DNA of 47,753 nucleotides. Origin: an uncultured Candidatus Saccharibacteria bacterium. Its GTDB lineage: Bacteria > Patescibacteriota > Minisyncoccia > Minisyncoccales > JAGGXC01. The position numbers and the translations under genes are program-made. The stretch is taken from the NCBI GenBank assembly GCA_964470765.1, contig CAYYDV010000002.1, forward strand, positions 1 to 47,753, given 5' to 3'. The notes under the pieces are model-generated. The model made no database searches. It saw nothing but the letters and a program-made list of their open reading frames with translations, and had not been told where the DNA came from. Shown here one piece after another: positions 19,994 through 41,103 of the stretch; the first letter of the stretch is position 1; every line of letters begins with the position of its first letter.

Positions 19994-19997
19994 AATT

Positions 19998-26128: not shown

Positions 26129-26134
26129 AGCAAA

Positions 26135-27484: not shown

Positions 27485-28015
27485 ATGTTTGATGAGGAAT
27501 TAGTAGGAAGACTCTATCAGGAGACTGAGATTCTCAATCCTCAACATATATGGCTCCTTAATCATATGATGGGGGTTAGCCATGTAGCTGGCTTTTTGGG
27601 GCGTAAACTTGAACAACATGATATAACAATCGATGTTGAACTATTAGAAACTGCAGCCTTAATCCATGATATTGGAAAAGTGTTTGACAGAGGAAACCAA
27701 GAACATGTCATTAAGGGTGTAAAATTCCTTCGTGAGAAAAAGGTTGATGAAAAAATTGTTAGACCCATTGAGCTCCATGAAGTATATAGCTTTGAAAAAG
27801 ATGTCCTTCCAGAACCTTCTAGTTGGGAAGAAAGAACTCTTTTCTTAGCAGATTTAGCTTTTGGTCAGCATGTTATGTTGGTCAAGGAACGAGTAGAAGA
27901 TATTATAGGAAGATATTCTATTCTTCCCGACAGAGCAAAATGGTTAAGAAAAATGTCCCAAGAAATCTACCAAGAAATATCAGAAATAATCTCACCAGAA
28001 TCTCTACCCTTCTAA
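27485..28015 (+). CDS. HD-domain metal-dependent phosphohydrolase
   Basis: 176 aa with H...HDIGK (AALIHDIGKVFD). It is the only plus-strand gene inside the 25-kb minus-strand array. Confidence 0.8.
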   Translation: MFDEELVGRLYQETEILNPQHIWLLNHMMGVSHVAGFLGRKLEQHDITIDVELLETAALIHDIGKVFDRGNQEHVIKGVKFLREKKVDEKIVRPIELHEVYSFEKDVLPEPSSWEERTLFLADLAFGQHVMLVKERVEDIIGRYSILPDRAKWLRKMSQEIYQEISEIISPESLPF

Positions 28016-28090
28016 ACAACATATCTTCAGTGTAGAAAACTCGCTTTTTCTGCGCTGTTTTTTTGAATATTATTAATTAATTTTATAAAT

Positions 28091-28874: not shown

Positions 28875-29831
28875 TTAAACATTTAATACTTTACGGTATC
28901 TTTCGTCTATATTTTCTAAATCTACATAACAATCATGAGATTCTAAATTATCTATTTTCCCTATTTCTTTTAAATCTGGCATGTGTAAAAGAAATTTTGA
29001 CTTCGTATTATCTTGATCGAATAAATTATCAAATTTTTCGATCCCGGCCGAATTAAACAAATATCTGTAAAGGGTATAGGAAGGTATACCGAAAAAGGAA
29101 CCCAGTATCGCCGAACTAGAAATAATGCTATAAACTGCTTTTATTTTTTGATTATAGGTATCTAATATTACCTGAGCATTAACTGTATTATCAAATAAAT
29201 TATACTTTTTAATGTTAATTCCGGACATAACTCTGTTTTTATCACCAGGATGAGGTTTATACCATAACTTACAATCAGAGTATTTACCTTCAATACTTTT
29301 AAAGAAAGCAGTTAGTTTTTCAATGAATACTTTGTTGCTTGGGAGATATTCAGAAAAATCCTGACAAATACTTGTGTCTCCAAATATAATAACCATATCT
29401 CGTTTAGAGGTTGGCGAATTTTTAGATATAATCGGGTAGGGTAAAATATTTTCTTTTTTATCATCGAAAATGTTTACTACTTCTCTAACCGGACTGACTA
29501 TCCTAAAAGAAACCCCGGGGATTCTTTCGGCATAAACAAAACCAGTAAATTCTCCAGCTAAAGTACTTGTTACTTTTATTTTGTAACATCCAAGAAATAA
29601 AGAGTGTAAGTTGCAAAAAAGGGTCTTTATCCTGTCTATCTTAGTTTCTGAATAAGCTTTTTCCTTTAAAATGAATTTAATGATATTTTTAACATTTTTC
29701 TGTTTGCTTAAATTATAAAGTAGGATATTTACCGTTGGCCAGGTTGATTTATGAAGAAATAAATCTATTGTTTCAAAATTCGCCAAAAAAGAAGATATTA
29801 CCTTTTTTAATTTCCTTTGAAAAGCTGACAT
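28875..29831 (-). CDS. Bacterial sialyltransferase-like protein (GT38/GT52-type motifs), probably missing its true N-terminus through a frameshift
   Basis: The HP motif sits in LWYKPHPGDKN (compare YKPHPRE in meningococcal polysialyltransferase, as I remember it). IFDDKKEN sits where the D/E-D/E-G motif is expected, and a serine-rich segment (YSIISSSAILGSFFGIPSY) is present. The frame stays open upstream to 29912. Confidence 0.45.
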   Translation of the reverse strand: MSAFQRKLKKVISSFLANFETIDLFLHKSTWPTVNILLYNLSKQKNVKNIIKFILKEKAYSETKIDRIKTLFCNLHSLFLGCYKIKVTSTLAGEFTGFVYAERIPGVSFRIVSPVREVVNIFDDKKENILPYPIISKNSPTSKRDMVIIFGDTSICQDFSEYLPSNKVFIEKLTAFFKSIEGKYSDCKLWYKPHPGDKNRVMSGINIKKYNLFDNTVNAQVILDTYNQKIKAVYSIISSSAILGSFFGIPSYTLYRYLFNSAGIEKFDNLFDQDNTKSKFLLHMPDLKEIGKIDNLESHDCYVDLENIDERYRKVLNV

Positions 29832-29881
29832 TTCCCAAAATCCAACTAAGAAATTCTTCTTGTAGTGTATAAAATCAAACT

Positions 29882-30040
29882 CTATAATTCTGGTGATGAT
29901 GATGTTACTTGGTCATTATTTATTCTAAATAATATAATCTTTGAAACTGAGTCATACTTTTTTATGATTTTGATAAGATTTTTATATAACAATAAATCAG
30001 CGGGGTGATTGCATATAAAGAGTTTTGCCGTGTTTTTCAT
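29882..30040 (-). pseudogene. Detached N-terminal piece (52 codons, different frame) of the sialyltransferase-like gene
   Basis: My translation is MKNTAKLFICNHPADLLLYKNLIKIIKKYDSVSKIILFRINNDQVTSSSPEL*. The LFICNHP...LL start resembles the N-terminus of GT52/GT38-type enzymes. It overlaps the open upstream extension of 28875..29831 at 29882-29912 in another frame. Confidence 0.45.
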
Positions 30041-30172: not shown

Positions 30173-30976
30173 CTAAGTTGATGTGGGTACCCCCCAAAAT
30201 TCACAGTAACTACACAATGGCACTTTATTTCTTTTGCCTTCTATATGATATTTCAGCCATTTTCTTCTTTTGGGACTGTTCCAAATACCAACCAAAGGAG
30301 TTTTATTAGCATCTCCAATAACTCCTAACCTCAAAGGATCAAACCTAACACAAATAGAAACTTTACCAAATCTATCTATGCACATGTGATTGAGTAGGTC
30401 TAAACAGATTCCTATTTCTGGTTTGGTAGGATTTTTCTTATACTTAAAACTGCCTAGAGGATTATGTAATACCCTGGTAGCCACTATTCCTGGTAATTTT
30501 TTCCATTTTTCTGTATCTACTTTTCCAAGACATCTATATATTAAATTGGGTTTTTTATTACCTTTAATCCTTAAAAATTTTTTAACTAATTTATATTGTT
30601 CATCGCCTTCAGGATCATTTTCAATTACTGAAATAGTCAAAGTTTCTAGGTTGCTAATTATTTCATCAGCTTTTTCAACAATTAACTTCCCATTAGTATC
30701 TAGACACCTTATCTGTCTCTGGAATAACTTAGCAGCATCGCCAAATCGGGGATAAAGAAGAGATTCTCCGTTATTATGTAATTGGACCACTATTCCTTCG
30801 GGCAGTTGCTTAGCTATTTTCTCTACCAACTTAAAGTCCATATCCCCCCAATCACATAATTCAGGATGTTCTTTTTCTAACTTACGTCTTCCACAACAAA
30901 AACATTTTTTATTACATCTACTGGTTAACTCAATATTAACTGTGGTCAATCCATTAAATTGTTTTTCTTGTTTCAT
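30173..30976 (-). CDS. Radical SAM protein (non-B12; C-terminal Cys-rich auxiliary/twitch-like region)
   Basis: 267 aa with CxxxCxxC in LTSRCNKKCFCCGRRK and C-terminal cysteines (ICLDLLNHMCIDRFGKVSICV...PLCSYCEFWG). Confidence 0.75.
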   Translation of the reverse strand: MKQEKQFNGLTTVNIELTSRCNKKCFCCGRRKLEKEHPELCDWGDMDFKLVEKIAKQLPEGIVVQLHNNGESLLYPRFGDAAKLFQRQIRCLDTNGKLIVEKADEIISNLETLTISVIENDPEGDEQYKLVKKFLRIKGNKKPNLIYRCLGKVDTEKWKKLPGIVATRVLHNPLGSFKYKKNPTKPEIGICLDLLNHMCIDRFGKVSICVRFDPLRLGVIGDANKTPLVGIWNSPKRRKWLKYHIEGKRNKVPLCSYCEFWGVPTST

Positions 30977-31541
30977 GTTTAAAGATTTTATTCTCTACTA
31001 ACCCGCAGATAATATGACCTATGGTAATATGGGCTTCTTGAATTCGGGGAGTATTATTGGAGGGGACATTAAGTAGGGTATCAACTTTGTCTTTTAATTT
31101 ACCGCCACTGCTCCCAGTCAAGGCAACTGTCTTTGCTCCTTTTCCTTTAGCTTTCAAAATTCCTCTGAGGACATCCTCGGAGTTTCCACTAGTGCTAATG
31201 CCGATAACTATATCTTTATCAGTAACCAAACTCTCAATCTGTCTTTCGAAAATCTTATCAAAATCATAGTCGTTGGCAATTGCACTCATTATCGAGGTAT
31301 TAGTGGTTAATGCTAAAGCTGGTAAACTTTTTCTTTCTAGTTTATATTTTCCAATCAGTTCAGCAGCAATGTGTTGAGCATCAGCTGCTGAACCGCCATT
31401 GCCAAATAAAATAACTTTACCCTCATTTTTATAACAATCAATAATTAACCGGGCGATTTCATCTATTTTTTCTATCCCATTGTCCAATATTCGATTCATA
31501 ACTTCAATATGTTCTTTTAATTCGTGATTTATTTTTTCCAT
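30954..31541 (-). CDS. SIS-domain sugar-phosphate isomerase, GmhA (phosphoheptose isomerase)-like
   Basis: 195 aa with ILFGNGGSAADAQHIAAELIGKY, ALTTNTSIMSAIANDY, GISTSGNSEDV and QEAHITIGHIIC, a close match to the GmhA pattern. Confidence 0.8.
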   Translation of the reverse strand: MEKINHELKEHIEVMNRILDNGIEKIDEIARLIIDCYKNEGKVILFGNGGSAADAQHIAAELIGKYKLERKSLPALALTTNTSIMSAIANDYDFDKIFERQIESLVTDKDIVIGISTSGNSEDVLRGILKAKGKGAKTVALTGSSGGKLKDKVDTLLNVPSNNTPRIQEAHITIGHIICGLVENKIFKHETRKTI

Positions 31542-31547
31542 ATTAAA

Positions 31548-32423
31548 CTATTTAATCTTTCTTAATTTTTCAATTATTGGCTTTTCGCTTTCGAAAACTT
31601 TTTTTATACCATCCCCTAAACACGCTGGGATATTCCTAATATCCCTCACTACCCTATATATACCATCTGGCCCCAAACTAGCTGCTTGATCGCTTCCCCA
31701 CATCGACCTATCTAAAGTAATATGAGCTTCTACTATAGAAGCACCAACAGTTGCAGCCATTACCGGTTCAACTATACCAGCTCCATGACTGCTATAACCA
31801 ATAGGGCAATTAAAAGTTTTTATCATCCAAGGAATAACATTTAGATTCAATTCTTCTATTTTTGAAGGATAAGTTGAAGTACAGTGAAGTAAAGCTGAGT
31901 TGTCTTCGCTAATGACCTCTATCGCATGTCTAATCTGTTCGGTAGTACTCATACCAGTAGACATAATTATTGGTTTTCCTTTAGATTTAATTTTCTTTAG
32001 CAATTCATCGTCTGTCAAACAAGCTGAAGCTACTTTATAACAAGGAACATCGAACTGCTCTAGAAAATCAACGCTTTTTATGTCCCAAGGAGAGGCAAAC
32101 CATATTATTCCTTTTTCTTTACAATATTTATCAATTTCTTCGTATTCTTTTTCGCCAAATTCAAGTCCTCTTTTCAAATCACCGTTGGTCGGACCAAAAG
32201 GATTCTCTCTTGTCTTTGCTAATTCCTCTGGCGTATAAACTAATTCAATGGTCCTTTTCTGAAATTTTACTGCGTCGCATCCAGTAAAAGCTGCCATGTC
32301 TATTAACTTTTTAACATTGTTCATATCGCCATTATGATTAATGCCTATCTCTGCTGTTATAAAAACTTTCTCACATCTGCCTATTGTTTTATCTCTTATT
32401 TTTAATTTTTCTTCTTCTGCCAT
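31548..32423 (-). CDS. NeuB-like PEP-condensing synthase, short form without the SAF domain
   Basis: 291 aa with VFITAEIGINHNGDMNNVKKLIDMAAFTGCDAVKFQKR, GYSSHG and EAHITLDR. The protein ends about 25 residues after the TIM-barrel core, so it has no SAF domain. Confidence 0.8.
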   Translation of the reverse strand: MAEEEKLKIRDKTIGRCEKVFITAEIGINHNGDMNNVKKLIDMAAFTGCDAVKFQKRTIELVYTPEELAKTRENPFGPTNGDLKRGLEFGEKEYEEIDKYCKEKGIIWFASPWDIKSVDFLEQFDVPCYKVASACLTDDELLKKIKSKGKPIIMSTGMSTTEQIRHAIEVISEDNSALLHCTSTYPSKIEELNLNVIPWMIKTFNCPIGYSSHGAGIVEPVMAATVGASIVEAHITLDRSMWGSDQAASLGPDGIYRVVRDIRNIPACLGDGIKKVFESEKPIIEKLRKIK

Positions 32424-32457
32424 GTTTTTATTTTATTTGATTAATTTTTCCGACCTT

Positions 32458-33129
32458 TTAGTTATTTTTAATTCCGGTTCCCAAAATCATTAATTCTCTT
32501 GACCATCTGATAAACTTATTCTTGTATGTCCTTCTAACTGGTCCTAATAATTGCAAAATCTTAGAAAATATCTTTAAACAAGGGTATTTCCATAAAACGG
32601 GTAATTGATAAAACAATTCTGATTTTACATTTTTAAAATTATGTATCTTTAACAAATCACTTATAGACTTTGCAGTATAAGGATGATGATGAGTATAATC
32701 ATCATAAAATACATGTTTCACGCTATGCCAATCTGGAGTCATAATAATTATTGTTCCTCCTGGTTTTAAAACCCTTTGGCATTCTTTAATAAAATGTTCT
32801 GGGCTCCAAAGATGTTCAATAACTGATTTGGAAAATACAAAATCAAATGTTTCATCGTTGAATGGAAAAGGACCCTTTTCAATATTAGCTAATTTAATTT
32901 CGATATCTTTTAAAATCTCTGAATGACTTTTTTCCCAATCTAATCCAAAAATTTCTAATTTTAAATCTTTAAAACCTTTAGTAAAATCGCCTCGACCGCA
33001 ACCAACATCTAAGAGCTTGTCGCCGACTTTCATATTGTAACGTTCAAATAAATACTTACAAAGCTTATAGGGATAATCAGTATAAGGTCTTTCTCTTTCG
33101 TTGTAAATGGTTTTGATATAGCCTGACAT
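32458..33129 (-). CDS. Class I SAM-dependent methyltransferase
   Basis: 223 aa with LLDVGCGRGDFT and SVIEHLWSPEHFIKECQRVLKPGGTIII. Confidence 0.8.
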   Translation of the reverse strand: MSGYIKTIYNERERPYTDYPYKLCKYLFERYNMKVGDKLLDVGCGRGDFTKGFKDLKLEIFGLDWEKSHSEILKDIEIKLANIEKGPFPFNDETFDFVFSKSVIEHLWSPEHFIKECQRVLKPGGTIIIMTPDWHSVKHVFYDDYTHHHPYTAKSISDLLKIHNFKNVKSELFYQLPVLWKYPCLKIFSKILQLLGPVRRTYKNKFIRWSRELMILGTGIKNN

Positions 33130-33133
33130 AAGT

Positions 33134-33562
33134 TTAAATTTCTTCGACTAATTCAACAGGAACATTATCAGGATCAAAGCAAAACACGACTTTAGCTTTT
33201 CCGTTCGGAGATAATTGAGGAGAAGAAATAAATCTAATCCCTTTTTCTTTTAATCGTTTGTATTCAAAATCAATATCTTCTACAGTAAAAGCTGGATGAG
33301 AAGCACCGATATCAAAGATTTCTTTGTTTTCCATTTTTTTACCCCCATGGGATTGATATGATAGAAGCTCTATCAAATTTCCATCATCAGCTATCATTTT
33401 TACTGTTCTTACTTTTACCTTTTCAAGTCCTAATATTGTATCAATAAACTTCCCTTCTTCTAACGCATCAACTTTGATTTCAAATCCTAACAGATCTCTG
33501 TAAAATTCAAGGGATTTTTCAATATCACTTACCACTATTCCGAAATGACGTATTGCTTTCAT
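33134..33562 (-). CDS. VOC (glyoxalase/bleomycin-resistance/dioxygenase) superfamily protein
   Basis: 142 aa with the N-terminus IRHFGIVVSDIEKSLEFYRDLLGF and the second module ASHPAFTVEDID. Confidence 0.75.
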   Translation of the reverse strand: MKAIRHFGIVVSDIEKSLEFYRDLLGFEIKVDALEEGKFIDTILGLEKVKVRTVKMIADDGNLIELLSYQSHGGKKMENKEIFDIGASHPAFTVEDIDFEYKRLKEKGIRFISSPQLSPNGKAKVVFCFDPDNVPVELVEEI

Positions 33563-33566
33563 ATTT

Positions 33567-34757
33567 TTAATCTTTATTAATTAATTCTTCGAAGCACTCT
33601 CCTAAGACCTTGACTCCTTCAGCTAACGCCTCTTCAGGTATAGTCAATGGTGGACCTATCTTAATTGTATCTCCATAAGTACTGACTAAGAGTAGCCCTT
33701 TCTCTGCACATCTTTCTATAATCTTTTGTGTTAACTCCGCATCTCCTGTATATAATGCCCATATCATTCCACGACCATATACCTTGTGATTAGGAAATGT
33801 TTTTCTTAATAATTCCCCGAATCGATTACCTTTTGCAGCGGCTTCTTCTAATAATTTCCGGTTCTCAATAATTTCAAGTGTAGCTAAAGCAGTAGCACAA
33901 CATACTGGATTTCCGCTATGAGTAGACCAAAGGTCATCACTTAATTCTAATAGCTTTTTACAACCTACAACCGCGCTAATAGGCAACCCTCCACCAATAG
34001 CTTTACCAATAGTGATGAAATCTGGTTGAATATCATAATTTTGATAACCAAACCATTTAGCTGTTCTTCCAACTCCAGACTGCATTTCGTCAAAGCCAAC
34101 TGGGATATCATTTTCCTGCGCCCACTTAGACCAAGTTCTAACCCATTCATAAGGCAAAAACTTTGCATCTCTTCCTCTAAAAGCCTGTAAGAAAACACCC
34201 GCAATCTCATCGTGATTGACTTTATCAGGAAGCATTGACTCATCAATTACATTGTCTAAAAGCGATCTACAAGCTGCGGTACTACCGTAATAAGCTCCTT
34301 TTATTGATAATATCTTTCCTTTTTTATTTCGCTTCATCATCTGTATTACAGAATCGTTAGCTTCTGAGCCGGTAACAGTAAATAACACTTTATCCATTTG
34401 AGTAATTTCACATAATTTCTTTGCCAATTTTATACGGGAATCATTAGGAAAAACATAGGAATGTATTAACTTATTATTGACTTTATCTGTAATGGCGGCG
34501 CTTACTTCCTTTGCACAATGACCAACATTAGCCACAAATATACCAGAAGTAAAATCTATCCATTTATTCCCCCATTTGTCATAAACTTGGAAATCATCCG
34601 TCCTGTCCCAAATTACAGGCAATTCATGATCGCATATACTACTTGCCTCATATTTTTTCATATCTTCTAATAGAGGTATGGAATCAGGAACAGGAATTTT
34701 AGTCTTTATCCTTCGAAATTTTGTATCAATTGACTGAACTTTTTTAGACATAGACAT
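33567..34757 (-). CDS. Class-III (fold type I, omega-type) PLP aminotransferase
   Basis: 396 aa with TVTGSEANDSVIQM and FDEMQSGVGRTAKWFGYQNYDIQPDFITIGKAIGGGLP (the DExQ..GRTG.. and Lys motifs). Confidence 0.85.
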   Translation of the reverse strand: MSMSKKVQSIDTKFRRIKTKIPVPDSIPLLEDMKKYEASSICDHELPVIWDRTDDFQVYDKWGNKWIDFTSGIFVANVGHCAKEVSAAITDKVNNKLIHSYVFPNDSRIKLAKKLCEITQMDKVLFTVTGSEANDSVIQMMKRNKKGKILSIKGAYYGSTAACRSLLDNVIDESMLPDKVNHDEIAGVFLQAFRGRDAKFLPYEWVRTWSKWAQENDIPVGFDEMQSGVGRTAKWFGYQNYDIQPDFITIGKAIGGGLPISAVVGCKKLLELSDDLWSTHSGNPVCCATALATLEIIENRKLLEEAAAKGNRFGELLRKTFPNHKVYGRGMIWALYTGDAELTQKIIERCAEKGLLLVSTYGDTIKIGPPLTIPEEALAEGVKVLGECFEELINKD

Positions 34758-34772
34758 AATTTTTAATATTTT

Positions 34773-35528
34773 TTAAGTTATTGGCTTGAAATTATTCTTT
34801 AAGAATTCATGTATTTTATATTTTTGTTTTTCCAAATTAAATCTAAAAAATTCTAAATCTTCCGGACGATCTAATTCTCCGGTATCTGGTGAAATGAAAG
34901 CCATTATCTTTGACCCGTGAAAAACACCTTTATCTGTTATGGTTTGATTCTTTACAACATCTACGTATCCATCGGGCTGATAAACAGGTGAAAAAGATTG
35001 ACGCGGTAAATTGTAATATTCGGGCCTTGTATCATTCGGGAATAATCCAACAAAGAAACCATTTTCAATAGCAAAACATTTATAAGGTGATTCTCTTAAT
35101 TCATGACCGGATCGAAGAGAAGTAGCCTCTTTATTTTGAACAAATTGTTCAATCGCCTTATCAATTAATTCGGGATCTCTCAAAGGAGTGGTGGGCCTAA
35201 GATGAACTAAATATTCAGGGCAATATCCTTCATTATTTTTAAGCCATTCAATAGCATGCTGAAACAATTCTATATCAGGAGAGTCGTCTCTAGCAAACTC
35301 TTCTGGTCTCAGAAAAGGAACTTCAGCTCCATAAAGTCTACTAATTTCGGCTATTTCTTCACTATCAGTGCTAACAACAACTCTGGAAATAAGCTTTGAA
35401 AGTTTTGCGGCTATTATTGAATAAGCAATAAGAGGATAATCTCCTAAATTTACTATATTTTTTTTAGGAATCGATTTCGAGCCACCTCGAGCGGGAATTA
35501 TAGCAATGACTTCTTTATTCTTATCCAT
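34773..35528 (-). CDS. Acylneuraminate cytidylyltransferase family (NeuA-like CMP-ulosonate synthetase)
   Basis: 251 aa with VIAIIPARGGSKSIPKKNI and LRPTTPLR. Confidence 0.85.
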   Translation of the reverse strand: MDKNKEVIAIIPARGGSKSIPKKNIVNLGDYPLIAYSIIAAKLSKLISRVVVSTDSEEIAEISRLYGAEVPFLRPEEFARDDSPDIELFQHAIEWLKNNEGYCPEYLVHLRPTTPLRDPELIDKAIEQFVQNKEATSLRSGHELRESPYKCFAIENGFFVGLFPNDTRPEYYNLPRQSFSPVYQPDGYVDVVKNQTITDKGVFHGSKIMAFISPDTGELDRPEDLEFFRFNLEKQKYKIHEFLKNNFKPIT

Positions 35529-35531
35529 TTT

Positions 35532-36407
35532 TTATGGTTTAGCTATTGAAATTAAAGTATCTGATTGACCTTTCTGACATAAATATTCTTTATAATAATC
35601 TTCTAGCCACTTATAAGAGCCTTTAGTTTGAAATACAGGCCTCTCTATCTGAGGTTTTCCAAGAATAAACCAATTCATAAAATTGTCTATACTATATCTA
35701 TGGGTATAAAGACTCCTAATTATAGAAAAACCTGCTTTTTGAACAACTTTTTTCAGAGTTGTAGCATTAAAGTAAGATAAATGTGCTCTCTGCCAATAAA
35801 AATCTCTATAATTTTTGGAAACTGTAAGCAATAAATCATCTACATTAGGAACCTCTATAATCAATTTTCCATTTTTGTTAAGGTGTTTTTTTATAATTTT
35901 TAGAAATAGTATGGGGTCATAAAGATGTTCTAAGACATGAAATAATGTAATGCAATCAAATTTAGATAAACCAGCTTCGTTGTGATATAAATTAACATCT
36001 AAAACCTTGGCATCGGTAATTTTAGCTGATATTAGCCGTTTCTCTTTTGAAATCTCAATTCCAGTGACATCATATCTTAGATTTTCCATTTCTTTAAGGA
36101 AAAATCCGTAACCAGAACCTATGTCTAAAACTTTTTTTCCTTTTAGCACTTCTTTTGAAATCAATTCTGTTCGTCTTTTTGTGTCAGCCAAGGATTTTTT
36201 TCTAATTACTTTTAAATCCTGTGGTTCTCCGATATTTTTCGATTGACGATCTTCGTCATAAAACTCCTTATCCTCCTTAATCGAAGGCGTTGGAAACAAC
36301 TGCAAAAGCTGACATTTTTGGCATTTCACAATTTTATGTTTATTGGAATCCCGAACTCTTGGTGAAATTATCTTAAATTTTTTGCCGTTACAAACAATAC
36401 ACTTCAT
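35532..36407 (-). CDS. Class I SAM-dependent methyltransferase with an N-terminal zinc-ribbon
   Basis: 291 aa. MKCIVCNGKKF...KCQKCQLLQ gives two CxxC pairs, with VLDIGSGYGFFL and FHVLEHLYDP downstream. Confidence 0.8.
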   Translation of the reverse strand: MKCIVCNGKKFKIISPRVRDSNKHKIVKCQKCQLLQLFPTPSIKEDKEFYDEDRQSKNIGEPQDLKVIRKKSLADTKRRTELISKEVLKGKKVLDIGSGYGFFLKEMENLRYDVTGIEISKEKRLISAKITDAKVLDVNLYHNEAGLSKFDCITLFHVLEHLYDPILFLKIIKKHLNKNGKLIIEVPNVDDLLLTVSKNYRDFYWQRAHLSYFNATTLKKVVQKAGFSIIRSLYTHRYSIDNFMNWFILGKPQIERPVFQTKGSYKWLEDYYKEYLCQKGQSDTLISIAKP

Positions 36408-36421
36408 AATTTAGTGATGAT

Positions 36422-37816
36422 TTAATCATCTTTTTCCTTATTATAATGTCTTGGCCCTCTAAAAGAGGTTTTCCCCATAAAATATAAATCGTAAAAATCT
36501 TTTATTAATTTATTTGCCGCATCCATATCTTTTGTAGTATACATATAGTGATCTATTATTAAATCTTTATTGACGGCGAAAAGTAATTCATAGTATTTAT
36601 TCAATGGGATATCAGTAAAATTTACTGTAACTAAATCTGAATTTTTGAATTTATTGAAAAAATCTTCGGGACCTGTCAAAAGACCTCTTCGAATTGCCTC
36701 ATAATACAAATCAGAGCCTGGATAGGGAGTAACTGGTTTAATTGTTCGTATCTGATCATAAGTATTATATTTTTTAATTAGTTCTACGTTACCTTTTAAT
36801 GACTCCTCAGTGTCTCCGACATTACCCCATATAAAGTTCAATCCTAAACCTATTCCTACTTTTCTTGTGATTTCCGCTGCTTTGATATTTTGTTCAACCG
36901 TGGTGTTCTTATTCATAAGATTTAAAACATTCTGGTCTGATGACTCCATTCCGAAATTAAGAAATTTACATCCGCATTCTTTTAACAATTCAGCGATTTC
37001 TTCATCAAATAAATTAACCCGAGCTTCGCAGTAAAACTTTATTTTCAAACCAGCTTCCTTCAGGGCATCCCTAAACTCATATACTCTTTTTTTTGAAATA
37101 ATAAATAAATCGTCTTCTATTCCAAAATAATTTACACCATAATCTTTATTTAAAATCTTCATCTCTTCAATAACGTTATTTATGCTTCTAAGTCTAATGC
37201 CTTTTTCCATTCGATAACAAAAACTACATCGATTAACGCAACCCCTGCTCGTAATGATACTGAAAGTAATATCTTCATTCGTTGCGCCCGAAGGTTTAAA
37301 ACATTTTGTATATTTTTCCATCGGAAATAATGACCACTCGGGAAAAGGAATAGAATCTAAATTTATAACCGGCTGACGTCTCTCATTAACAACTATCTCG
37401 CCATTTATTAAGTAAGCGGTACTTTTTACTTTAGATAAATTACCTCTCTCAATTTTACATTGTACCAGTTCGACAATTGTCTTTTCTGCTTCGCCTAAAA
37501 TAATAATGTCGGCTTTTGTTTTTTGTAAAATGTACTCTGGTATTGGAGAAGAACCAGGACCTCCTAAAACTAACCAAGCATTTTTTTTATGCAAATTTAT
37601 TATCTCGCAAAGTGGTTCTATTGTTTCCTTGAACCTTGCTGCTAAAAATCCAACGCCTATTATGTCAAATTCGTTTTCTTCTAAAAACTCTGCTAATTCG
37701 TCATTAGTATAATGAAATACGTCTTGACAATAAACTGTAACATCAGCACCGTTTTTTTTAAGAACGGCTGTCATATATGCAGGGCCCAGTGGAAAATAAT
37801 TGTCTTCCTGATACAA
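36422..37816 (-). CDS. B12-binding-domain radical SAM enzyme (start codon uncertain)
   Basis: It has PLGPAYMTAVLKKNGADV, IIILGEAE and CxxxCxxC in TSRGCVNRCSFCYRMEKG. The track start is the TTG at 37816, but the conserved N-terminal strand (KVLFIIHD) is encoded upstream of it, in frame, with no ATG/GTG/TTG available. Confidence 0.85.
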   Translation of the reverse strand: MYQEDNYFPLGPAYMTAVLKKNGADVTVYCQDVFHYTNDELAEFLEENEFDIIGVGFLAARFKETIEPLCEIINLHKKNAWLVLGGPGSSPIPEYILQKTKADIIILGEAEKTIVELVQCKIERGNLSKVKSTAYLINGEIVVNERRQPVINLDSIPFPEWSLFPMEKYTKCFKPSGATNEDITFSIITSRGCVNRCSFCYRMEKGIRLRSINNVIEEMKILNKDYGVNYFGIEDDLFIISKKRVYEFRDALKEAGLKIKFYCEARVNLFDEEIAELLKECGCKFLNFGMESSDQNVLNLMNKNTTVEQNIKAAEITRKVGIGLGLNFIWGNVGDTEESLKGNVELIKKYNTYDQIRTIKPVTPYPGSDLYYEAIRRGLLTGPEDFFNKFKNSDLVTVNFTDIPLNKYYELLFAVNKDLIIDHYMYTTKDMDAANKLIKDFYDLYFMGKTSFRGPRHYNKEKDD

Positions 37817-37889
37817 ATCGTGAATGATAAATAAAACTTTGGGTTGTTTTTTCGTTTTAATTGACTCGATTACGATGAAATTTTTATCT

Positions 37890-39362
37890 TTAGAAATAAA
37901 TATATCTAAAACGTTTAATTATAAACTTCAGACCGATGAAAGTAGTAAGATAAATTAAAACTCCAGTAGATGCCGAAAGGAAAATATTAAGATTATAGAT
38001 TTGAGGCTGGGATATTACAAAATACATTATAATGCTTGAAAAACCAACAGTAATTAAACTAAGAAGGTTTTTAAAGTTAAAAGGTCGAATCGGAGTAAAT
38101 TTAGAGGCAAAAAGGAAGAATAAAAATAAGATTAATAAATAAGTAATTACCGTGGCCACTGCTGCTCCATACAAACTAAATTTAGGAATCAAGATTAGGT
38201 TTAAAATAATATTAATCACTGCTCCTGAAATTGTAATCCAGAAAAACTTTTTTTGCTGATTTGAAGCAATTAAAACTTGGCTAAAAGGACTGGAAAGAAA
38301 GGCAAGCACGACCATTAATATTAAAATCTGAAAGGCTAAAATAGAAGGAGTAAAATCTGCTCCATAAACAAAATTTATAATTTGAGGAGCAAGAACAATT
38401 CCTCCTATCATTAAAGGTAAAGCCAATATAATCATTAATTCCATCTGATAATTCCAAACTCTCTGGAGTTCTTTTTTTGATTCTTTAAAAAGCTTACTTA
38501 GAACGGGATAAAAATTCATAACAATAATACCCATTGGAATTGTAGTAGAGATAACAAGCCTATAAGCGGCATTGTACCATCCCGTTTCCGTAATCTGACC
38601 TAAGTATCCCATCATTACCGAATCAATATAAACGTAAAATGCTCCAAACAAGCTGGCTAAGGCTAAGGGCCAAGACATTCTTAAGAACTTCTTCCAAACT
38701 TCTATTCTCCAGGAAATTCTTAGAGGAAAAACTTTAAAGCAAAAGAGGGTTAGAATAAAAGCTAGACTAATCAATACTGAAAGTAAATACCCGTAGCTTA
38801 GATTTATAACCGTGGGAAAATTAAAAATTATAAAAAAACCAACTCCGGCTACTATCAAACCTTCTAAAACTGTTCCCCAAGATTGATATTCCATTCTTTG
38901 ACGAGCCCTAAAGAAAGCATAAATACTTTCAGAAAAATTACCAATCAAGCTAAAGCCTGCTAAAATCCATATTATTTTTCGGATATTAGGATCAGAAGTA
39001 ATAAAGAAAGAGCCAATTGAAATCAGAATTAATGTTCCTAAACTTAAAACAATTTTTAGGGAAAGGATAGAAAAAAATTCTTTTTCTTTTTCTTTTTCTC
39101 TGGAAAATTCTCTGGTAATAATGCTAGATAGACCTAAATCAGAAAAAACAACAAATAAAGAAATGAAGGCTAAAGCAAAAGTAAACTTTCCGTACTCGGT
39201 TGCTCCTAAAATCCGGGCAACATAAATTATCAGAACTAACTTTGAAACCTTACTTACTCCTATCCCCAATGTAATCCACAAGGTATTTTTAAAGATCGTT
39301 TGTTTAACTGTCTTATTATCAAATAAGATTGCTTTAATATCAGTAAAATTTCTAATCTTCAT
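37890..39362 (-). CDS. Wzx-type polysaccharide/oligosaccharide flippase (MOP superfamily)
   Basis: 490 aa with about 14 TM. The N-terminus TLWITLGIGVSKVSKLVLIIYVARILGATEYGKFTFALAF is typical of the Polysacc_synt family. Confidence 0.8.
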   Translation of the reverse strand: MKIRNFTDIKAILFDNKTVKQTIFKNTLWITLGIGVSKVSKLVLIIYVARILGATEYGKFTFALAFISLFVVFSDLGLSSIITREFSREKEKEKEFFSILSLKIVLSLGTLILISIGSFFITSDPNIRKIIWILAGFSLIGNFSESIYAFFRARQRMEYQSWGTVLEGLIVAGVGFFIIFNFPTVINLSYGYLLSVLISLAFILTLFCFKVFPLRISWRIEVWKKFLRMSWPLALASLFGAFYVYIDSVMMGYLGQITETGWYNAAYRLVISTTIPMGIIVMNFYPVLSKLFKESKKELQRVWNYQMELMIILALPLMIGGIVLAPQIINFVYGADFTPSILAFQILILMVVLAFLSSPFSQVLIASNQQKKFFWITISGAVINIILNLILIPKFSLYGAAVATVITYLLILFLFFLFASKFTPIRPFNFKNLLSLITVGFSSIIMYFVISQPQIYNLNIFLSASTGVLIYLTTFIGLKFIIKRFRYIYF

Positions 39363-39363
39363 C

Positions 39364-40122
39364 TTAGAATTTTTTCTTAGGTTTGCACTTTAGAACCAAG
39401 TCCAAAAACTTACTTTTATAACATCTCTTCAGAATCTCAGCATTGGGTAGAACACAATGACCACGAATCCCATCTTTGGGTGGATAAAGAACTGGTCGAA
39501 CAACATGAGACATTCCTAGTTTTTTGTATCCTTCATTATAAGTTTTATTAAAATCTGTTACTGCTTCCTCAAAATTAATTCCAGCCTTATTACAAATCTT
39601 TTTCATTTCTCCATGCCAGGCAATACAAACAGCATAATAAGAAGTAGAAAGTAATTTTCCTATTTCCGTAGTAATTGAAGGCTGAAATACCTTTGTTTTG
39701 ATACCTAAACTTTCTAAATGTTTTTTAGCTAATTCTCCGGCTTTTTTATTATCAGTACCAATATATTTCACAAAGGTTTTAATCCCTGGATAAAGATTAG
39801 GATGAACTCCTCTAATTGGACTATGAACAACTAAAGCTTTAGTAGAATCAGCAATTTTCTTTGAAGTTCCCGGGGCAATTGTTGAATGGATAATAGTTAG
39901 CTTTGGTTTTATTGCTCTTATTTCTTTGCTTACTATCTTGGTAAAATCATCACTCCAGGGAAGACAGATATTTAAAATCTCTACTCCCTTTAGGTTATCG
40001 TCTCTTTTTAAATCTTTTATTTTCGCCTGTGGTGAGCCTGCCGAACCATAAAACTTAGCTACGGCTCTCCCCGCTTCCCCATAACCCAGTATTCCTATCT
40101 TGTGGTGAGCTTGCCGAACCAT
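39364..40122 (-). CDS. Short nucleotide-sugar dehydrogenase-like NAD-binding protein (UDP-glucose/GDP-mannose dehydrogenase N-terminal and central regions only)
   Basis: It has KIGILGYGEAGRAV (Rossmann), IHSTIAPGTSKKI, TEIGKLLSTSYYAVCIAWHGEMKKIC, and GIRGHCVLPN, which resembles the GGxCxPKD catalytic Cys motif. No C-terminal nucleotide-sugar-binding domain is present. The ATG at 40122 is preferred over the track start at 40206. Confidence 0.45.
   Translation of the reverse strand: MVRQAHHKIGILGYGEAGRAVAKFYGSAGSPQAKIKDLKRDDNLKGVEILNICLPWSDDFTKIVSKEIRAIKPKLTIIHSTIAPGTSKKIADSTKALVVHSPIRGVHPNLYPGIKTFVKYIGTDNKKAGELAKKHLESLGIKTKVFQPSITTEIGKLLSTSYYAVCIAWHGEMKKICNKAGINFEEAVTDFNKTYNEGYKKLGMSHVVRPVLYPPKDGIRGHCVLPNAEILKRCYKSKFLDLVLKCKPKKKF
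40028..40049. repeat. 22-nt direct repeat, copy 1 (read as YGSAGSPQ)
   Basis: tgtggtgagcctgccgaaccat differs at 1 position from tgtggtgagcttgccgaaccat at 40101-40122. The offset is 73 nt, which is not a multiple of 3. Confidence 0.8.
40101..40122. repeat. 22-nt direct repeat, copy 2 (read as MVRQAHH; contains the likely start codon)
   Basis: See 40028..40049. Its reverse complement begins atggttcggcaagctcaccaca. Confidence 0.8.
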
Positions 40123-40249
40123 TTTTGCTTGCCCCGTATAATTTCTTTTCGGGGCCTGCCTCAAGACTCTAAAGGAGCTTTTCGGAGTTTTATTTTTTGA
40201 AGTCATATTGGTCTAATAATTTTAATTCTTAATTCGAGCGAAGCGAGAA

Positions 40250-40277
40250 TCAAGGTTCTGCCAAAGGCAGGTTCTTA
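40250..40277. repeat. 28-nt hairpin-containing intergenic repeat, copy A
   Basis: tcaaggttctgccaaaggcaggttctta, with stem ctgcc/ggcag, loop aaa, and a flanking direct GGTTCT...GGTTCT. Confidence 0.8.
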
Positions 40278-40294
40278 GAATATGCCGAAGGCAT

Positions 40295-40322
40295 TCAAGG
40301 TTCTGCCAAAGGCAGGTTCTTA
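40295..40322. repeat. 28-nt hairpin-containing intergenic repeat, copy B (identical to A; its last 3 nt are the stop codon of 40320..41018)
   Basis: tcaaggttctgccaaaggcaggttctta, beginning 17 nt after the end of copy A. Confidence 0.8.
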
Positions 40323-41018
40323 TTTCCACTTTTTTAAAGCCTCACTGTAACGTTTAAAAGTGCCACAATCCATCCATTTTCCATTAAATTTAAAACCGCC
40401 TAGTTTTTTTTCTTTAGCTAATTTAGGAAAAAGGTCGGTCTCAACCATACTAAACTTGGGGCCAGGATGATAATCAAAAACTTGGGAAGAGAAAATATAA
40501 AGCCCTGAGTTAATGTAACTCGAGGGTGGATTTTTAGGTTTTTCTAAAAACTCTTGGACAATCCCTTTTTTACAAAGAATTACCCCATAATCTTGGGGAT
40601 TAGGAACTTTTACTAAAGCTATTGTTCCTAGAACTGGTTTCTCTTGGTGAAACTGAGCCATTTTATTTAAATCTATTTTTTTCAGTTCATCTCCGTTACT
40701 AAAAAAGAAATCGCCATCAGAAAGCCAGTCTTTTAAGTTCCATAAACCTCCAAAAGTTCCTAAATGTTTTTTCTCCTCCTGGATTAAAATTTTATGTCTC
40801 GGATAATATCTCTTCTCCCACCATTCAAACTCTTCTTTAAATTCTTTATTGACTAAAACGGCGATATCTTTAATTCCTTTTTCCAAGAAAAGGTCAACCA
40901 AATGATTTATAATTGGTTTTCTCTTTACCGGAAGCAGAGGTTTGGGAATCTCATAAGTAATAGGGTAGAGTCGGGTCCCTTTTCCTCCGGCCAAAATGAC
41001 TGCTTTACGATTCCTCAT
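40320..41018 (-). CDS. Sugar-1-phosphate nucleotidylyltransferase (NTP_transferase family, e.g. mannose-1-P guanylyl- or glucose-1-P nucleotidylyltransferase type)
   Basis: KAVILAGGKGTRLYPITYEIPKPLLPV is the signature. The ATG at 41018 (MRNRKAVILAGG) is preferred over the track TTG at 41072, which lies inside the long inverted repeat. Confidence 0.8.
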   Translation of the reverse strand: MRNRKAVILAGGKGTRLYPITYEIPKPLLPVKRKPIINHLVDLFLEKGIKDIAVLVNKEFKEEFEWWEKRYYPRHKILIQEEKKHLGTFGGLWNLKDWLSDGDFFFSNGDELKKIDLNKMAQFHQEKPVLGTIALVKVPNPQDYGVILCKKGIVQEFLEKPKNPPSSYINSGLYIFSSQVFDYHPGPKFSMVETDLFPKLAKEKKLGGFKFNGKWMDCGTFKRYSEALKKWK

Positions 41019-41025
41019 ACAATTA

Positions 41026-41103
41026 TTTAAACCCCGTAGTGAAAATTTGAATAATAACATTGAATTGAGCAAGGCTCGTTCAAACTTCTACTACGGGGTT
41101 AAA
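41026..41103. repeat. Long imperfect inverted repeat / stem-loop between the HTH gene and the nucleotidyltransferase gene
   Basis: The perfect 11-bp core is aaccccgtagt (41030-41040) with actacggggtt (41090-41100). It extends inward to 41051/41079 with 2 mismatches and 1 G-T pair. The loop is 27 nt. Confidence 0.7.

Follow-up and report, generated by a model that had tools for sequence, protein, structure and literature searches.

A nine-gene cassette for a putative aminated and methylated CMP-ulosonic acid in an uncultured Candidatus Saccharibacteria bacterium

Background

A stretch of 47,753 nucleotides from an uncultured Candidatus Saccharibacteria bacterium (contig CAYYDV010000002.1; hereafter the window) carries nine tightly packed genes in which a NeuB-like synthase is combined with a GmhA-like isomerase, and the question raised by this locus is which sugar acid such a set of enzymes would make. 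The original prediction, that the genes encode an atypical ulosonic-acid pathway unlike the canonical Neu/Leg/Pse routes, was borne out, the canonical route being that of a separate set in the same window (module 1) with NeuB plus SAF, DegT and CTP_transf_3 domains in Pfam; two of its supporting arguments, an analogy with PtmF and the novelty of a synthase without a SAF domain, did not survive. The operon represents one variant of a CMP-sugar-acid cassette that is widespread and unstudied, and a literature search found no paper describing it. Its product is proposed to be a CMP-activated, aminated and methylated 3-deoxy-2-ulosonic acid destined for a Wzx-dependent surface glycan, and the backbone is taken, with middling confidence, to be that of a ten-carbon amino sugar acid formed from a heptose and PEP.

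Gene content and extent of the cassette

The nine open reading frames were confirmed, with their predicted minus-strand orientation, coordinates and domains, from the ORF list and Pfam. In transcription order they are as follows, with the flanking genes listed last.

36422..37816, minus strand: cobalamin-binding class B radical SAM enzyme, candidate C-methyltransferase (Pfam B12-binding and Radical_SAM)
35532..36407, minus strand: SAM methyltransferase with N-terminal zinc ribbon (Methyltransf_23, 98 bits)
34773..35528, minus strand: cytidylyltransferase, presumed CMP-ulosonate synthetase (CTP_transf_3)
33567..34757, minus strand: class III (omega-type) PLP aminotransferase (Aminotran_3, 214 bits)
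33134..33562, minus strand: VOC metalloprotein, glyoxalase I / methylmalonyl-CoA epimerase-like (Glyoxalase, 72.5 bits)
32458..33129, minus strand: second SAM methyltransferase (Methyltransf_11, 70.6 bits)
31548..32423, minus strand: SAF-less NeuB-family synthase (NeuB, 260.8 bits; SAF absent)
30954..31541, minus strand: GmhA-type sedoheptulose-7-phosphate isomerase (SIS_2/SIS)
30173..30976, minus strand: twitch-domain radical SAM enzyme, BtrN/SpeY-like (SPASM and a weak Radical_SAM match; CX3CX2C)
28875..30040, minus strand: candidate glycosyltransferase for the CMP-sugar (KPHPGD motif, position)
37890..39362, minus strand: Wzx-type flippase (Polysacc_synt, 134.7 bits)
39364..41072, minus strand: 280-aa protein, distantly akin to nucleotide-sugar dehydrogenases, and sugar-1-P nucleotidyltransferase

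Successive genes are separated by 14, 3, 15, 4, 4, 34 and 6 nt, and the last, which encodes the small radical SAM enzyme, has a 23-nt overlap with the isomerase gene, as had been described. The gene set first delimited as 30173-37816 stands and its boundaries do not, since co-conservation of the flanking genes in locus L009 extends the functional unit on both sides, to the putative transferase gene at 28875-30040 and to the Wzx, 280-aa protein and NTP-transferase genes at 37890-41072. The wzx gene lies directly upstream of the cassette and its L009 counterpart is 58% identical; the order of the 280-aa protein and nucleotidyltransferase genes is kept there (62% and 59% identity), and the L009 cassette is followed by a 561-aa homologue of gene 28875..30040 (54% identity). 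In the window, a 25-nt deletion together with a stretch of divergence near 29915 disrupts this last gene, whose intact counterpart in L001 encodes 396 aa. Searches of Pfam, NCBIfam and the PDB gave no match for it, and its position and HP motif make it a candidate transferase of the CMP-sugar. The best promoter-like site (41517-41489) lies upstream of the 39364..41072 genes, in a scan that was overall no better than that of shuffled sequence.

Six further metagenome contigs carry the identical block and syntenic variants are present in unrelated assemblies, so the arrangement is not due to chance; gene order is conserved across independent contigs. The synthase family gave 8000 scored matches, the best 120 of these 8000 being at least 69% identical, and a genome scan for the family yielded 599 loci in many phyla. 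Every member of the clade of the window synthase (window, L007, L008, L009 and L011) is accompanied by an aminotransferase. The named hosts of isomerase-bearing cassettes are mostly Peregrinibacteria, Chloroflexi and Actinobacteria, which are, to our knowledge, lineages without LPS, and this counts towards a heptose-based product.

Substrate class of the SAF-less synthase

The synthase does not reach the NCBIfam equivalog cut-offs for NeuB and PseI. It conserves residues E25, K53, Q55, K129, S132, H215, E234, H236 and D247 of NmNeuB, and has Cys in place of E134. Its lack of SAF, originally regarded as atypical, has precedents in PDB 6ncs and in the characterised, Man-6-P-specific Kdn-9-P synthase of Prymnesium parvum. 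The latter shares with the window family the KFQKR motif and an insertion loop, has a small residue at the NmNeuB-E134 position, and scores higher with the window synthase (124 bits) than with the canonical NeuB of module 1 (87 bits). In most family members the synthase is followed by a HAD protein, and the HAD protein of L008, the one tested, has matches to KdsC and to the Kdn-9-P phosphatase BT1713 (3e81, E 7.5e-20); the module in the window encodes no phosphatase. On the strength of these phosphatase neighbours and the motifs shared with the Prymnesium enzyme, the family most likely condenses PEP with sugar phosphates, and the phosphorylated aldose envisaged at the outset is a likely substrate.

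An alternative proposal is that a hexosamine-type substrate without phosphate, such as one made by module 1, is turned by the synthase into a Leg/Pse/Neu-type nonulosonate, while the isomerase, aminotransferase and radical SAM enzyme act on other sugars of the glycan. A complete canonical nonulosonate module, including DegT aminotransferases, dehydratases and formyl- or acetyltransferases, is indeed present in the window, and the NeuB metal and PEP residues are kept in the synthase. However, module 1 owns a NeuB with SAF and a cytidylyltransferase, other genomes keep the nine-gene set together without module 1, the synthase family is linked to KdsC-type phosphatases, and both E134 and the SAF domain, whose Arg314 helps bind substrate in NeuB, are missing, all of which makes the proposal unlikely.

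The isomerase and the heptose question

Against TIGR00441 the isomerase scores 195.5 bits, just under the GmhA equivalog cut-off of 209.45, and against GmhA of Burkholderia pseudomallei (2xbl) 178 bits, with the AQH..E and IQE.H...H motifs intact; it is also 61% identical to P0349, a homologue encoded between the genes for transketolase, transaldolase and GmhB. Judged by its sequence, it is a near-orthologue of true GmhA, which strengthens the heptose substrate originally suggested and leaves it short of proof. The isomerase gene comes right after the synthase gene in the window, L007, L008 and L009 (gaps of 2-11 nt), is directly adjacent to it in L095, neighbours it in the maps of L025 and L028 and, in L029, L063 and L069 of Chloroflexi, is separated from it by a few genes. 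P0088 is a NeuB-SIS fusion and L007 carries a SIS-B12-rSAM fusion. The functional coupling of isomerase and synthase is thus upheld by adjacency in several clades and by fusion in P0088.

A role of the SIS protein in a legionaminic-acid branch, making GDP-GlcNAc in the manner attributed to PtmF, is very improbable. It goes back to the original prediction, and nothing in the present analyses speaks for it; comparison of Plesiomonas, Vibrio and Campylobacter contradicts the analogy, because the PtmF homologues are 326-aa Gfo/Idh/MocA oxidoreductases and not SIS proteins. The synthase, moreover, has no SAF and scores below the NeuB and PseI cut-offs, and 4,6-dehydratase, DegT aminotransferase and 2-epimerase are absent from the module in Pfam.

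The principal rival to the C10 condensation, a step on which our confidence is evenly divided, is a Kdn-type C9 product. The cassette and its tailoring would be the same, and the synthase would be a Man-6-P-using Kdn-9-P synthase leading to an amino- and methyl-Kdn derivative, in which ten carbons would possibly be reached only through cobalamin-dependent C-methylation. The role of the GmhA-like protein would then be either to form Man-6-P out of Fru-6-P or to serve a heptose residue of the same glycan that is unrelated to the cassette product. This is a serious possibility, although a less probable one. The only characterised relatives (the Prymnesium enzyme, and BT1714 of B. thetaiotaomicron with BT1713) make Kdn-9-P, the synthase-HAD layout of most family members mirrors BT1714-BT1713, and a literature search found no record of an enzyme of the synthase family assayed with heptose-7-P. 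No alignment column was found to separate isomerase-linked from isomerase-free synthases and the loop PRENPFGxTNGDLKRGLEF is common to both, which suggests one common substrate; for the isomerase-free loci, this would most simply be Man-6-P. Among such loci, L011 (Saccharibacteria, synthase 71% identical) has a cytidylyltransferase, class IV aminotransferase, synthase, radical SAM enzyme and methyltransferase, and no isomerase on the 8.3-kb contig examined, and in L092 and L093 a 282-aa synthase is accompanied by the same radical SAM enzyme and aminotransferases, again without the isomerase. Streptomyces synthases are 55-59% identical and lie beside a cytidylyltransferase, and the genes SCO4873-SCO4882 of S. 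coelicolor form a cluster for cell-wall teichulosonic acid, a polymer built of Kdn; the substrate-region loop of the Streptomyces clade, however, differs from that of all other members.

Against the C9 backbone stands the near-orthology of the isomerase to genuine GmhA, and isomerisation of Fru-6-P is not known to us for any GmhA. A bona fide GDP-mannose 4,6-dehydratase is encoded in the window (528 bits, cut-off 415), so Man-6-P is already available to the organism, which would have no need of an isomerase dedicated to forming it. Domain scans of the window detected no heptose kinase, GmhB or other HAD that would route heptose-7-P into NDP-heptose, and heptose-7-P is therefore left without another visible consumer. 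An unrelated role of the isomerase is disfavoured by its recurrent adjacency and fusion to the synthase and by its fusion to the B12 enzyme. Independently, mass spectrometry has revealed CMP-activated C10 ulosonic acids, their genes unassigned, in Magnetospirillum (bioRxiv 10.64898/2026.04.20.719630).

Tailoring enzymes

The presence of the small radical SAM enzyme had been recognised and its kinship with BtrN and SpeY missed. It carries C21x3C25x2C28 and the invariant C191, C209, C255 and C258. The top Foldseek matches of its AF2 model (pLDDT 79.8) are BtrN (4m7t; E 5.8e-10, TM 0.63/0.68) and then SpeY (7wzv), and the family profile likewise has BtrN as the best PDB sequence match (E 1.4e-10), with three auxiliary-cluster cysteines aligned. 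The enzyme is accordingly a predicted BtrN/SpeY-like twitch sugar dehydrogenase paired with the aminotransferase, and this assignment is the clearest mechanistic result of the present analysis. Each of the nine loci that contain an aminotransferase also encodes either this radical SAM enzyme or an SDR.

The aminotransferase has both the PLP lysine motif IGKAIGGG and a DEMQSG motif; it matches none of the NCBIfam equivalogs, and the solved structures closest to it are those of class III racemases and of acetylornithine or GABA transaminases. The VOC protein accompanies the class III aminotransferase in five of six loci and is absent from all three loci with a class IV enzyme instead, and on account of this pairing it is probably a helper of the class III enzyme that epimerises or isomerises the keto intermediate.

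The B12 enzyme contains the motif CVNRCSFC, stays under every NCBIfam cut-off (best BchE, 133 bits against 481) and is 67% identical to a 476-aa orthologue in L007. A conserved N-terminus, KVLFIIHD, precedes the TTG at 37816 and the orthologue begins MNQKGKVLFIIHD; translation thus probably starts further upstream than 37816, from a non-canonical codon in the interval of about 37861 to 37876. The zinc-ribbon methyltransferase (CxxC...CxxC at residues 3-33) has homologues in the cassettes L008, L093, L009, L095 and L075, and the second methyltransferase is 46% identical to the synthase-adjacent methyltransferase of L095. The cytidylyltransferase is PseF-like (137.8 bits, cut-off 205.7) and 68% identical to the cytidylyltransferase domain of L007, which is fused there to a class III aminotransferase. 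This conserved gene set fits the amination, methylation and CMP activation that had been anticipated.

A B12-dependent P- or C-methyltransferase, cytidylyltransferase, transaminase and VOC protein might also be expected of a phosphonate or other small-molecule cluster, and the B12 enzyme does weakly match PhpK-type P-methyltransferases (108 bits, cut-off 600), as the N-terminus of the VOC protein weakly matches Fos proteins. Such a cluster is nevertheless highly improbable, as Pfam scans of window ORFs of at least 100 aa found no PEP mutase domain, the genes lie within a 40-kb glycan locus between the Wzx flippase and glycosyltransferases, and the pairing of NeuB with CTP_transf_3 is the hallmark of CMP-ulosonate synthesis.

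Proposed pathway

The preferred C10 route, which as a whole we consider about equally apt to hold or to fail, would begin with conversion of sedoheptulose 7-phosphate into D-glycero-D-manno-heptose 7-phosphate by the GmhA-type isomerase, as its near-orthology suggests. The SAF-less NeuB homologue would condense this aldose phosphate with PEP to a ten-carbon 3-deoxy-dec-2-ulosonate 10-phosphate, genomic context supporting use of a phosphosugar and the heptose being the presumed one. The phosphate would be removed by a phosphatase encoded outside the module, relatives of the cassette encoding KdsC/BT1713-type enzymes. The twitch radical SAM enzyme, in keeping with its fold, cysteine pattern and gene pairing, would oxidise one hydroxyl to a carbonyl as do BtrN and SpeY, and the class III aminotransferase would convert the carbonyl to an amine, with the VOC protein probably epimerising or isomerising the keto intermediate. 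The two SAM methyltransferases may act on N and/or O and, from its family, the cobalamin radical SAM enzyme on an unactivated carbon. The cytidylyltransferase would yield the CMP-sugar, possibly ahead of some tailoring in view of its fusion to the aminotransferase in L007; the downstream KPHP-motif protein would then transfer the sugar and Wzx flip the unit. The cassette would thus bring together a putative radical-SAM dehydrogenase, aminotransferase and methylases acting on a sialic-acid-like surface sugar.

Gene content and boundaries of the operon

The nine open reading frames that the original prediction had placed at 30173-37816 (module 2, or the cassette) were all found on the minus strand at their predicted positions, and every domain claimed for them, including the class III aminotransferase and the NeuB domain without SAF, was recovered by Pfam scan. 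Successive genes are separated by 14, 3, 15, 4, 4, 34 and 6 nt, while the last gene and the isomerase gene overlap by 23 nt.

Genes of module 2 in the order of transcription
36422-37816, minus strand: B12 enzyme, with B12-binding and Radical_SAM domains
35532-36407, minus strand: Methyltransf_23 protein, with an N-terminal CxxC...CxxC zinc ribbon
34773-35528, minus strand: cytidylyltransferase, with a CTP_transf_3 domain
33567-34757, minus strand: class III aminotransferase, with an Aminotran_3 domain and an intact PLP-lysine motif
33134-33562, minus strand: VOC protein, with a Glyoxalase/VOC domain
32458-33129, minus strand: second methyltransferase, with a Methyltransf_11 domain
31548-32423, minus strand: synthase, with a NeuB domain and without SAF
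30954-31541, minus strand: isomerase, with SIS_2/SIS domains
30173-30976, minus strand: small radical SAM enzyme, with SPASM and a weak Radical_SAM match

None of the nine proteins reaches a curated NCBIfam equivalog cut-off, and each is therefore a member of an unnamed subfamily. Base-for-base copies of the nine-gene block occur in six other metagenome contigs and rearranged versions in unrelated assemblies (homologous loci of other assemblies carry the prefix L hereafter). The co-conserved unit is wider than 30173-37816: an NTP transferase, a 280-aa protein and Wzx encoded upstream all recur in locus L009, as does a downstream 396-aa protein with a KPHPGD motif, for which Pfam, NCBIfam and PDB searches returned zero matches. 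In the window, the gene for this last protein (28875-30040, minus strand) differs from that of the otherwise identical contig L001 by a 25-nt deletion and about 30 divergent bases near 29915, all within 29890-30040, which break the frame and leave a 318-aa open reading frame; the disruption may reflect variation among strains, decay into a pseudogene or an error of assembly. A scan for promoters and terminators gave no excess over shuffled sequence. A literature search covering NeuB with GmhA, C10 ulosonic acids and radical SAM enzymes in nonulosonate pathways found no description of the cassette.

A NeuB homologue without the SAF domain

The synthase, of 291 aa, has a complete NeuB barrel (PF03102, 260.8 bits, residues 40-274) and stops at residue 291, right after the barrel, with no match to SAF, whereas the NeuB of module 1, the canonical nonulosonate module of the window (11391-24679), carries this domain. 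In NeuB, SAF is a C-terminal (antifreeze-like) domain that gives Arg314 to the neighbouring active site. The Neisseria meningitidis NeuB residues E25, K53, Q55, K129, S132, H215, E234, H236 and D247 are retained in the synthase; the position of E134 is occupied by Cys135, and by C, S or T across the family. The protein falls below the equivalog cut-offs of TIGR03569 (253 against 399.65) and TIGR03586 (214.3 against 340.25).

The family is large and widespread. Out of 8000 matches scored in the family search, the best 120 are 69-89% identical, and a scan of one genome per species yielded 599 synthase loci, with hosts that include Saccharibacteria, Peregrinibacteria, Melainabacteria, Chloroflexi, Acidobacteria, Planctomycetes, Verrucomicrobia, Nitrospiraceae, Actinobacteria and Streptomyces. 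Gene neighbours were mapped at about 90 synthase loci, using queries derived from the window and from the loci, and the most frequent partner was a small HAD protein encoded directly 3' of the synthase. In the one case tested, L008, this HAD protein has KdsC and the Kdn-9-P phosphatase BT1713 (3e81, E 7.5e-20) among its matches; a phosphatase of this type is present in most relatives but is not encoded in the window. The archaeal SAF-less synthase of L091 (6434-7468), which is 61% identical to that of the window, has an N-terminal extension of about 55 residues.

The closest characterised system to the cassette is the Kdn pathway, which in Bacteroides thetaiotaomicron comprises the synthase BT1714, the phosphatase BT1713 and the CMP-Kdn synthetase BT1715. 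The Kdn-9-P synthetase of Prymnesium parvum converted Man-6-P alone among seven substrates (PMC6200933). Its sequence, translated from the supplement of that paper, is 312 aa long and SAF-less, has the KFQKR motif and the subsequent insertion loop as in the synthase, and bears Ser at the E134 position; it matches the synthase with 124 bits (31% identity) and the SAF-containing NeuB of module 1 with 87 bits. The best PDB match of the synthase, 6ncs (290 aa), is itself SAF-less. As the Prymnesium enzyme is already characterised, SAF-less synthases are not new, and the novelty originally ascribed to this feature is not sustained. The sole characterised activity of such synthases takes a phosphorylated aldose. 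Phosphorylated substrates have likewise been proposed for other SAF-less or phosphatase-linked synthases, namely 6ncs and a Leptospira NeuB-phosphatase fusion, for which this was inferred by Ricaldi et al.; these are, however, distant from the window synthase (143 bits), and GmhA and radical SAM enzymes are undescribed there. The gene following that for the zinc-ribbon methyltransferase in L093 (10683-11876) has a Pfam match to Lept_O_ant_chp1, a Leptospira O-antigen conserved hypothetical protein, which suggests that related cassettes may sit in Leptospira O-antigen loci.

Module 2 shares with the Kdn pathway a SAF-less NeuB homologue and would share the use of PEP with a manno-configured aldose phosphate and activation by a CTP_transf_3 enzyme, and the relatives of the cassette also share with B. 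thetaiotaomicron the HAD phosphatase beside the synthase. About one third of the probability is given to a Kdn-type route, in which Man-6-P and PEP would yield a C9 acid. Module 2 departs from the Kdn pathway in that it lacks a phosphatase and in that its product would be further aminated and methylated, modifications of Kdn of which we know no example. It departs from it also in coupling the synthase to GmhA, which implies a C7 instead of a C6 aldose phosphate.

With the canonical NeuB, LegI and PseI systems, module 2 has in common a PEP-dependent NeuB TIM barrel and, as predicted, CMP activation and use in surface glycans. Unlike in those systems, the synthase is without SAF and has E134 replaced, and UDP/GDP-HexNAc 4,6-dehydratase, DegT aminotransferase and 2-epimerase are absent from the module. 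Module 1 encodes, besides the SAF-containing NeuB, two DegT aminotransferases, a CBS-epimerase/dehydratase, a cytidylyltransferase and a Capsule_synth-type transferase, and its two formyltransferase-domain proteins (12395-13105 and 19111-19767) hint at an N-formylated sugar. A similar pair of modules is found in L093.

The isomerase and the length of the carbon chain

Judged by its sequence, the isomerase is a GmhA. It matches Burkholderia pseudomallei GmhA (2xbl) with 178 bits, and in alignment with 2xbl and the other cassette isomerases its motifs GNGGSAADAQH..E, STSG and IQE.H...H are intact, the last of which holds zinc and catalytic residues. Its scores lie slightly under the GmhA cut-off of TIGR00441 (195.5 against 209.45) and under that of NF010546 (197.9 against 276), and its relatives grade into one another as a continuum. 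For one homologue, P0349 (61% identical), the genes on either side code for two transketolase subunits, a transaldolase, a GmhB-like HAD and an NTP transferase, an unmistakable sedoheptulose-7-P/heptose context; another, P0317 (62% identical), belongs to a HAD-SIS-NeuB cassette. The original prediction had considered the SIS protein as an analogue of PtmF of legionaminic acid synthesis. This parallel fails, since PtmF is a 326-aa oxidoreductase according to the literature, and neither a PtmF-type partner nor a SAF-containing LegI is present in module 2.

The isomerase is closely associated with the synthase. The two genes directly adjoin in the clade of the window and in L095, are neighbours in the maps of L025 and L028, and are separated by a few genes in three loci from Chloroflexi (L029, L063 and L069); the isomerase is fused to the synthase in the homologue P0088 and, in L007, to a B12 radical SAM enzyme. 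To our knowledge, GmhA is known from NDP-heptose pathways only. The isomerase resembles their GmhA in its SIS fold, its active-site and zinc-site motifs and an identity of about 50-60% to genuine GmhA, but module 2 lacks a kinase (HldE/HddA), GmhB and a dedicated heptose nucleotidyltransferase, and an aldolase-type synthase would take up its heptose while this is still a 7-phosphate, with no conversion to a nucleotide sugar. An NDP-heptose pathway in the window was considered and rejected, no GHMP/HldE heptose kinase, GmhB or other HAD being encoded there. Among the loci examined, a genuine NDP-heptose set (SIS, GmhB and NTP transferase) is found only in L015 and L096/L097. By the heptose genes of the latter pair is encoded a 900-aa glycosyltransferase (L096 10729-13464, L097 10762-13464) with weak intein-splicing and LAGLIDADG matches. 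Transketolase or transaldolase genes, which would point directly to sedoheptulose-7-P, occur inside none of the synthase cassettes in about 95 loci.

The GDP-mannose 4,6-dehydratase of the window is a true member of its family (528 bits against a cut-off of 415), so Man-6-P is already made in the organism and a dedicated isomerase forming it would be redundant. The GmhA identity, the context of P0349, the adjacency and fusions, the lack of NDP-heptose genes and this supply of Man-6-P together favour heptose-7-P as the substrate of the synthase and hence a C10 acid, to which we assign about an even chance. Several observations weigh against the heptose route. No alignment column tells the 14 isomerase-linked from the 70 isomerase-free synthases, and the loop PRENPFGxTNGDLKRGLEF is common to both groups and different in the Streptomyces clade alone. 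The cassette of L011, also from Saccharibacteria and with a 71% identical synthase, is without the isomerase, as are L092 and L093.

CMP-activated C10 ulosonic acids have been detected by mass spectrometry in Magnetospirillum, with no genes assigned (2026 preprint, 10.64898/2026.04.20.719630); these data show that C10 ulosonic acids exist, apart from any tie to the SAF-less family.

Proposed oxidation and amination by a radical SAM dehydrogenase and an aminotransferase

The small radical SAM enzyme (267 aa) belongs to a family at least 69% identical across Bacteria and Archaea. In addition to the CX3CX2C motif (C21, C25 and C28), it has the invariant cysteines C191, C209, C255 and C258, and as four extra cysteines suffice for one auxiliary 4Fe-4S cluster, a twitch and not a full SPASM domain is indicated. 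With its AlphaFold model (pLDDT 79.8, residues 169-190 of low confidence), BtrN stood first in the Foldseek ranks 1-5 (E 5.8e-10, TM 0.63/0.68), followed by the twitch dehydrogenase SpeY, and BtrN was also the best PDB sequence match with the family profile (E 1.4e-10). C209, C255 and C258 align with cysteines of the C-terminal twitch region of BtrN, the ligands of its auxiliary cluster. BtrN (butirosin) and SpeY (spectinomycin) convert a secondary alcohol to a ketone, which is then aminated by an aminotransferase. The small radical SAM enzyme is thus predicted to be a BtrN/SpeY-like twitch dehydrogenase that would oxidise a secondary alcohol. It is similar to these enzymes in size (267 against 246-300 aa), in the CX3CX2C motif, in three of the four auxiliary-cluster cysteines and in being encoded alongside a PLP aminotransferase. 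It differs in sharing only about 14-17% identity with them, in the extreme conservation of its family (not less than 69% across both domains) and in its substrate, predicted to be not an aminocyclitol but an ulosonic acid, in acyclic-chain or pyranose form, or the CMP ester of that acid.

The gene contexts are consistent with such a pairing. In the window, as in L009, L011, L075, L092 and L093, an aminotransferase of class III or IV is encoded along with the small radical SAM enzyme. A SAF-less synthase and a cytidylyltransferase accompany it in all five further contexts, and each of these except the archaeal L091 adds an aminotransferase, either of class IV or of class III with VOC. Every one of the nine aminotransferase-containing loci has the small radical SAM enzyme or an SDR, the SDR alone being present in L007, L008 and L095. 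The VOC protein stands beside the class III aminotransferase in five of six loci and beside class IV in none of three, which suggests that it epimerises or isomerises, and so tunes, the keto intermediate for the class III enzyme. In L091, the small radical SAM enzyme occurs with an SDR and two methyltransferases and without an aminotransferase, so it may serve epimerisation or deoxygenation too.

We know of the radical SAM dehydrogenase and aminotransferase pair from aminoglycoside, not sugar-acid, pathways. In the synthesis of Kdo8N in Shewanella, the oxidase KdnB and the aminotransferase KdnA act on a C8 backbone made by KdsA. As there, module 2 would oxidise a hydroxyl of a 3-deoxy-2-ulosonic acid to a carbonyl, which is then transaminated; however, the Shewanella enzymes are a metal-dependent alcohol oxidase and an aminotransferase of another class, whereas module 2 has a radical SAM dehydrogenase (an SDR in relatives) and its aminotransferases are of class III or IV.

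Predicted methylation and CMP activation

The zinc-ribbon Methyltransf_23 protein recurs in the cassettes of L008, L009, L075, L093 and L095, and a counterpart of the Methyltransf_11 protein, 46% identical, lies beside the synthase of L095. The B12 enzyme matches PF02310 (42.6 bits) and PF04055 (76.9 bits) and shares 67% identity with its L007 orthologue; it falls in no characterised subfamily, all 25 NCBIfam matches being far under their cut-offs. C-methylation is the commonest chemistry of cobalamin radical SAM enzymes, and the B12 enzyme would act as a C-methylase. Its start is probably upstream of the TTG at 37816, as indicated by a conserved KVLFIIHD upstream of that codon and by the L007 orthologue, which begins MNQKGKVLFIIHD. 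The frame is open upstream of the TTG (37816-37890), with ATT or ATC as the only in-frame start candidates, and the start codon is either non-canonical or miscalled.

Two further full-length B12-binding radical SAM genes are present in the window (1638-3206 and 6404-7837), together with a 164-aa C-terminal radical SAM fragment (3736-4230). They are adjoined by genes for DUF4430 (3214-3651) and DUF6580 (1004-1564) proteins, whose families may relate to cobalamin binding or uptake. The enzyme at 1638-3206 is the best match in the window (28%) to the isomerase-fused B12 domain of L007.

The cytidylyltransferase matches CTP_transf_3 (77.9 bits), reaches 137.8 against a cut-off of 205.7 for PseF and is far under the cut-offs of KdsB models. 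Its fusion to the aminotransferase in L007 suggests that some tailoring may take place on the CMP-sugar. Two cytidylyltransferases are encoded near the synthase of L093; that of the window stands at the same distance from either (44%), so this comparison does not sort the two into distinct types. A phosphonate-type reading was discarded, Pfam scans of the window open reading frames having found no PEP mutase domain.

Other genes of the window

Within 25370-28861 lie genes for a CDP-alcohol phosphatidyltransferase, an MFS transporter, an NTP_transf_3 protein and, on the plus strand, an HD-domain protein. The NTP_transf_3 and HD-domain proteins each match one half of the DVU_1551-type NTP-transferase/HD family, and the four products may jointly add a phospho-alcohol substituent to the glycan. 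Two proteins with weak peptidoglycan-binding domains are encoded within 41573-47746, and a faint match to BNR_assoc_N is the only one for a 1016-aa open reading frame that stops a few bases short of the window end. The GC content rises from about 0.32 to 0.43 across the final 3 kb.

Proposed product and its significance

The original reading of module 2 as an atypical ulosonic acid pathway is retained in amended form, having gained the GmhA evidence and the dehydrogenase assignment and lost the PtmF parallel and the novelty of SAF-less synthases. The complete proposal, which we hold with slightly less than even confidence, is that the product is an undescribed C10 3-deoxy-dec-2-ulosonic acid, which would be formed from D-glycero-D-manno-heptose 7-phosphate and PEP, aminated by the radical SAM dehydrogenase and the transaminase, methylated (with cobalamin-dependent C-methylation included) and activated with CMP. 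Its logic is unlike that of the Neu, Leg and Pse pathways, where amination precedes assembly of the carbon chain: here PEP and a sugar phosphate would be joined into the chain before any amination, and a radical SAM enzyme would stand in for the usual NAD-dependent oxidation.

Among their best matches, the synthase and the small radical SAM enzyme each retain about 70% identity or above between distant phyla, and this strong conservation points to a defined, selected and uncharacterised product. There is a realistic chance that this product is a new class of sugar. Such would be the case if the heptose route is true, which would also provide genes for the C10 ulosonic acids that mass spectrometry has revealed but left unexplained, extend the role of GmhA beyond LPS and add a new substrate class for the twitch radical SAM dehydrogenases. 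It would then be the first genetic and enzymatic route to higher-carbon CMP-ulosonic acids, hitherto mass-spectrometric signals only. Sialic-acid-like sugars influence the recognition of microbes by hosts, phages and neighbouring cells, and the surfaces of many uncultured lineages, including CPR bacteria, Chloroflexi and some Archaea, would, if the proposal is true, bear such acids.
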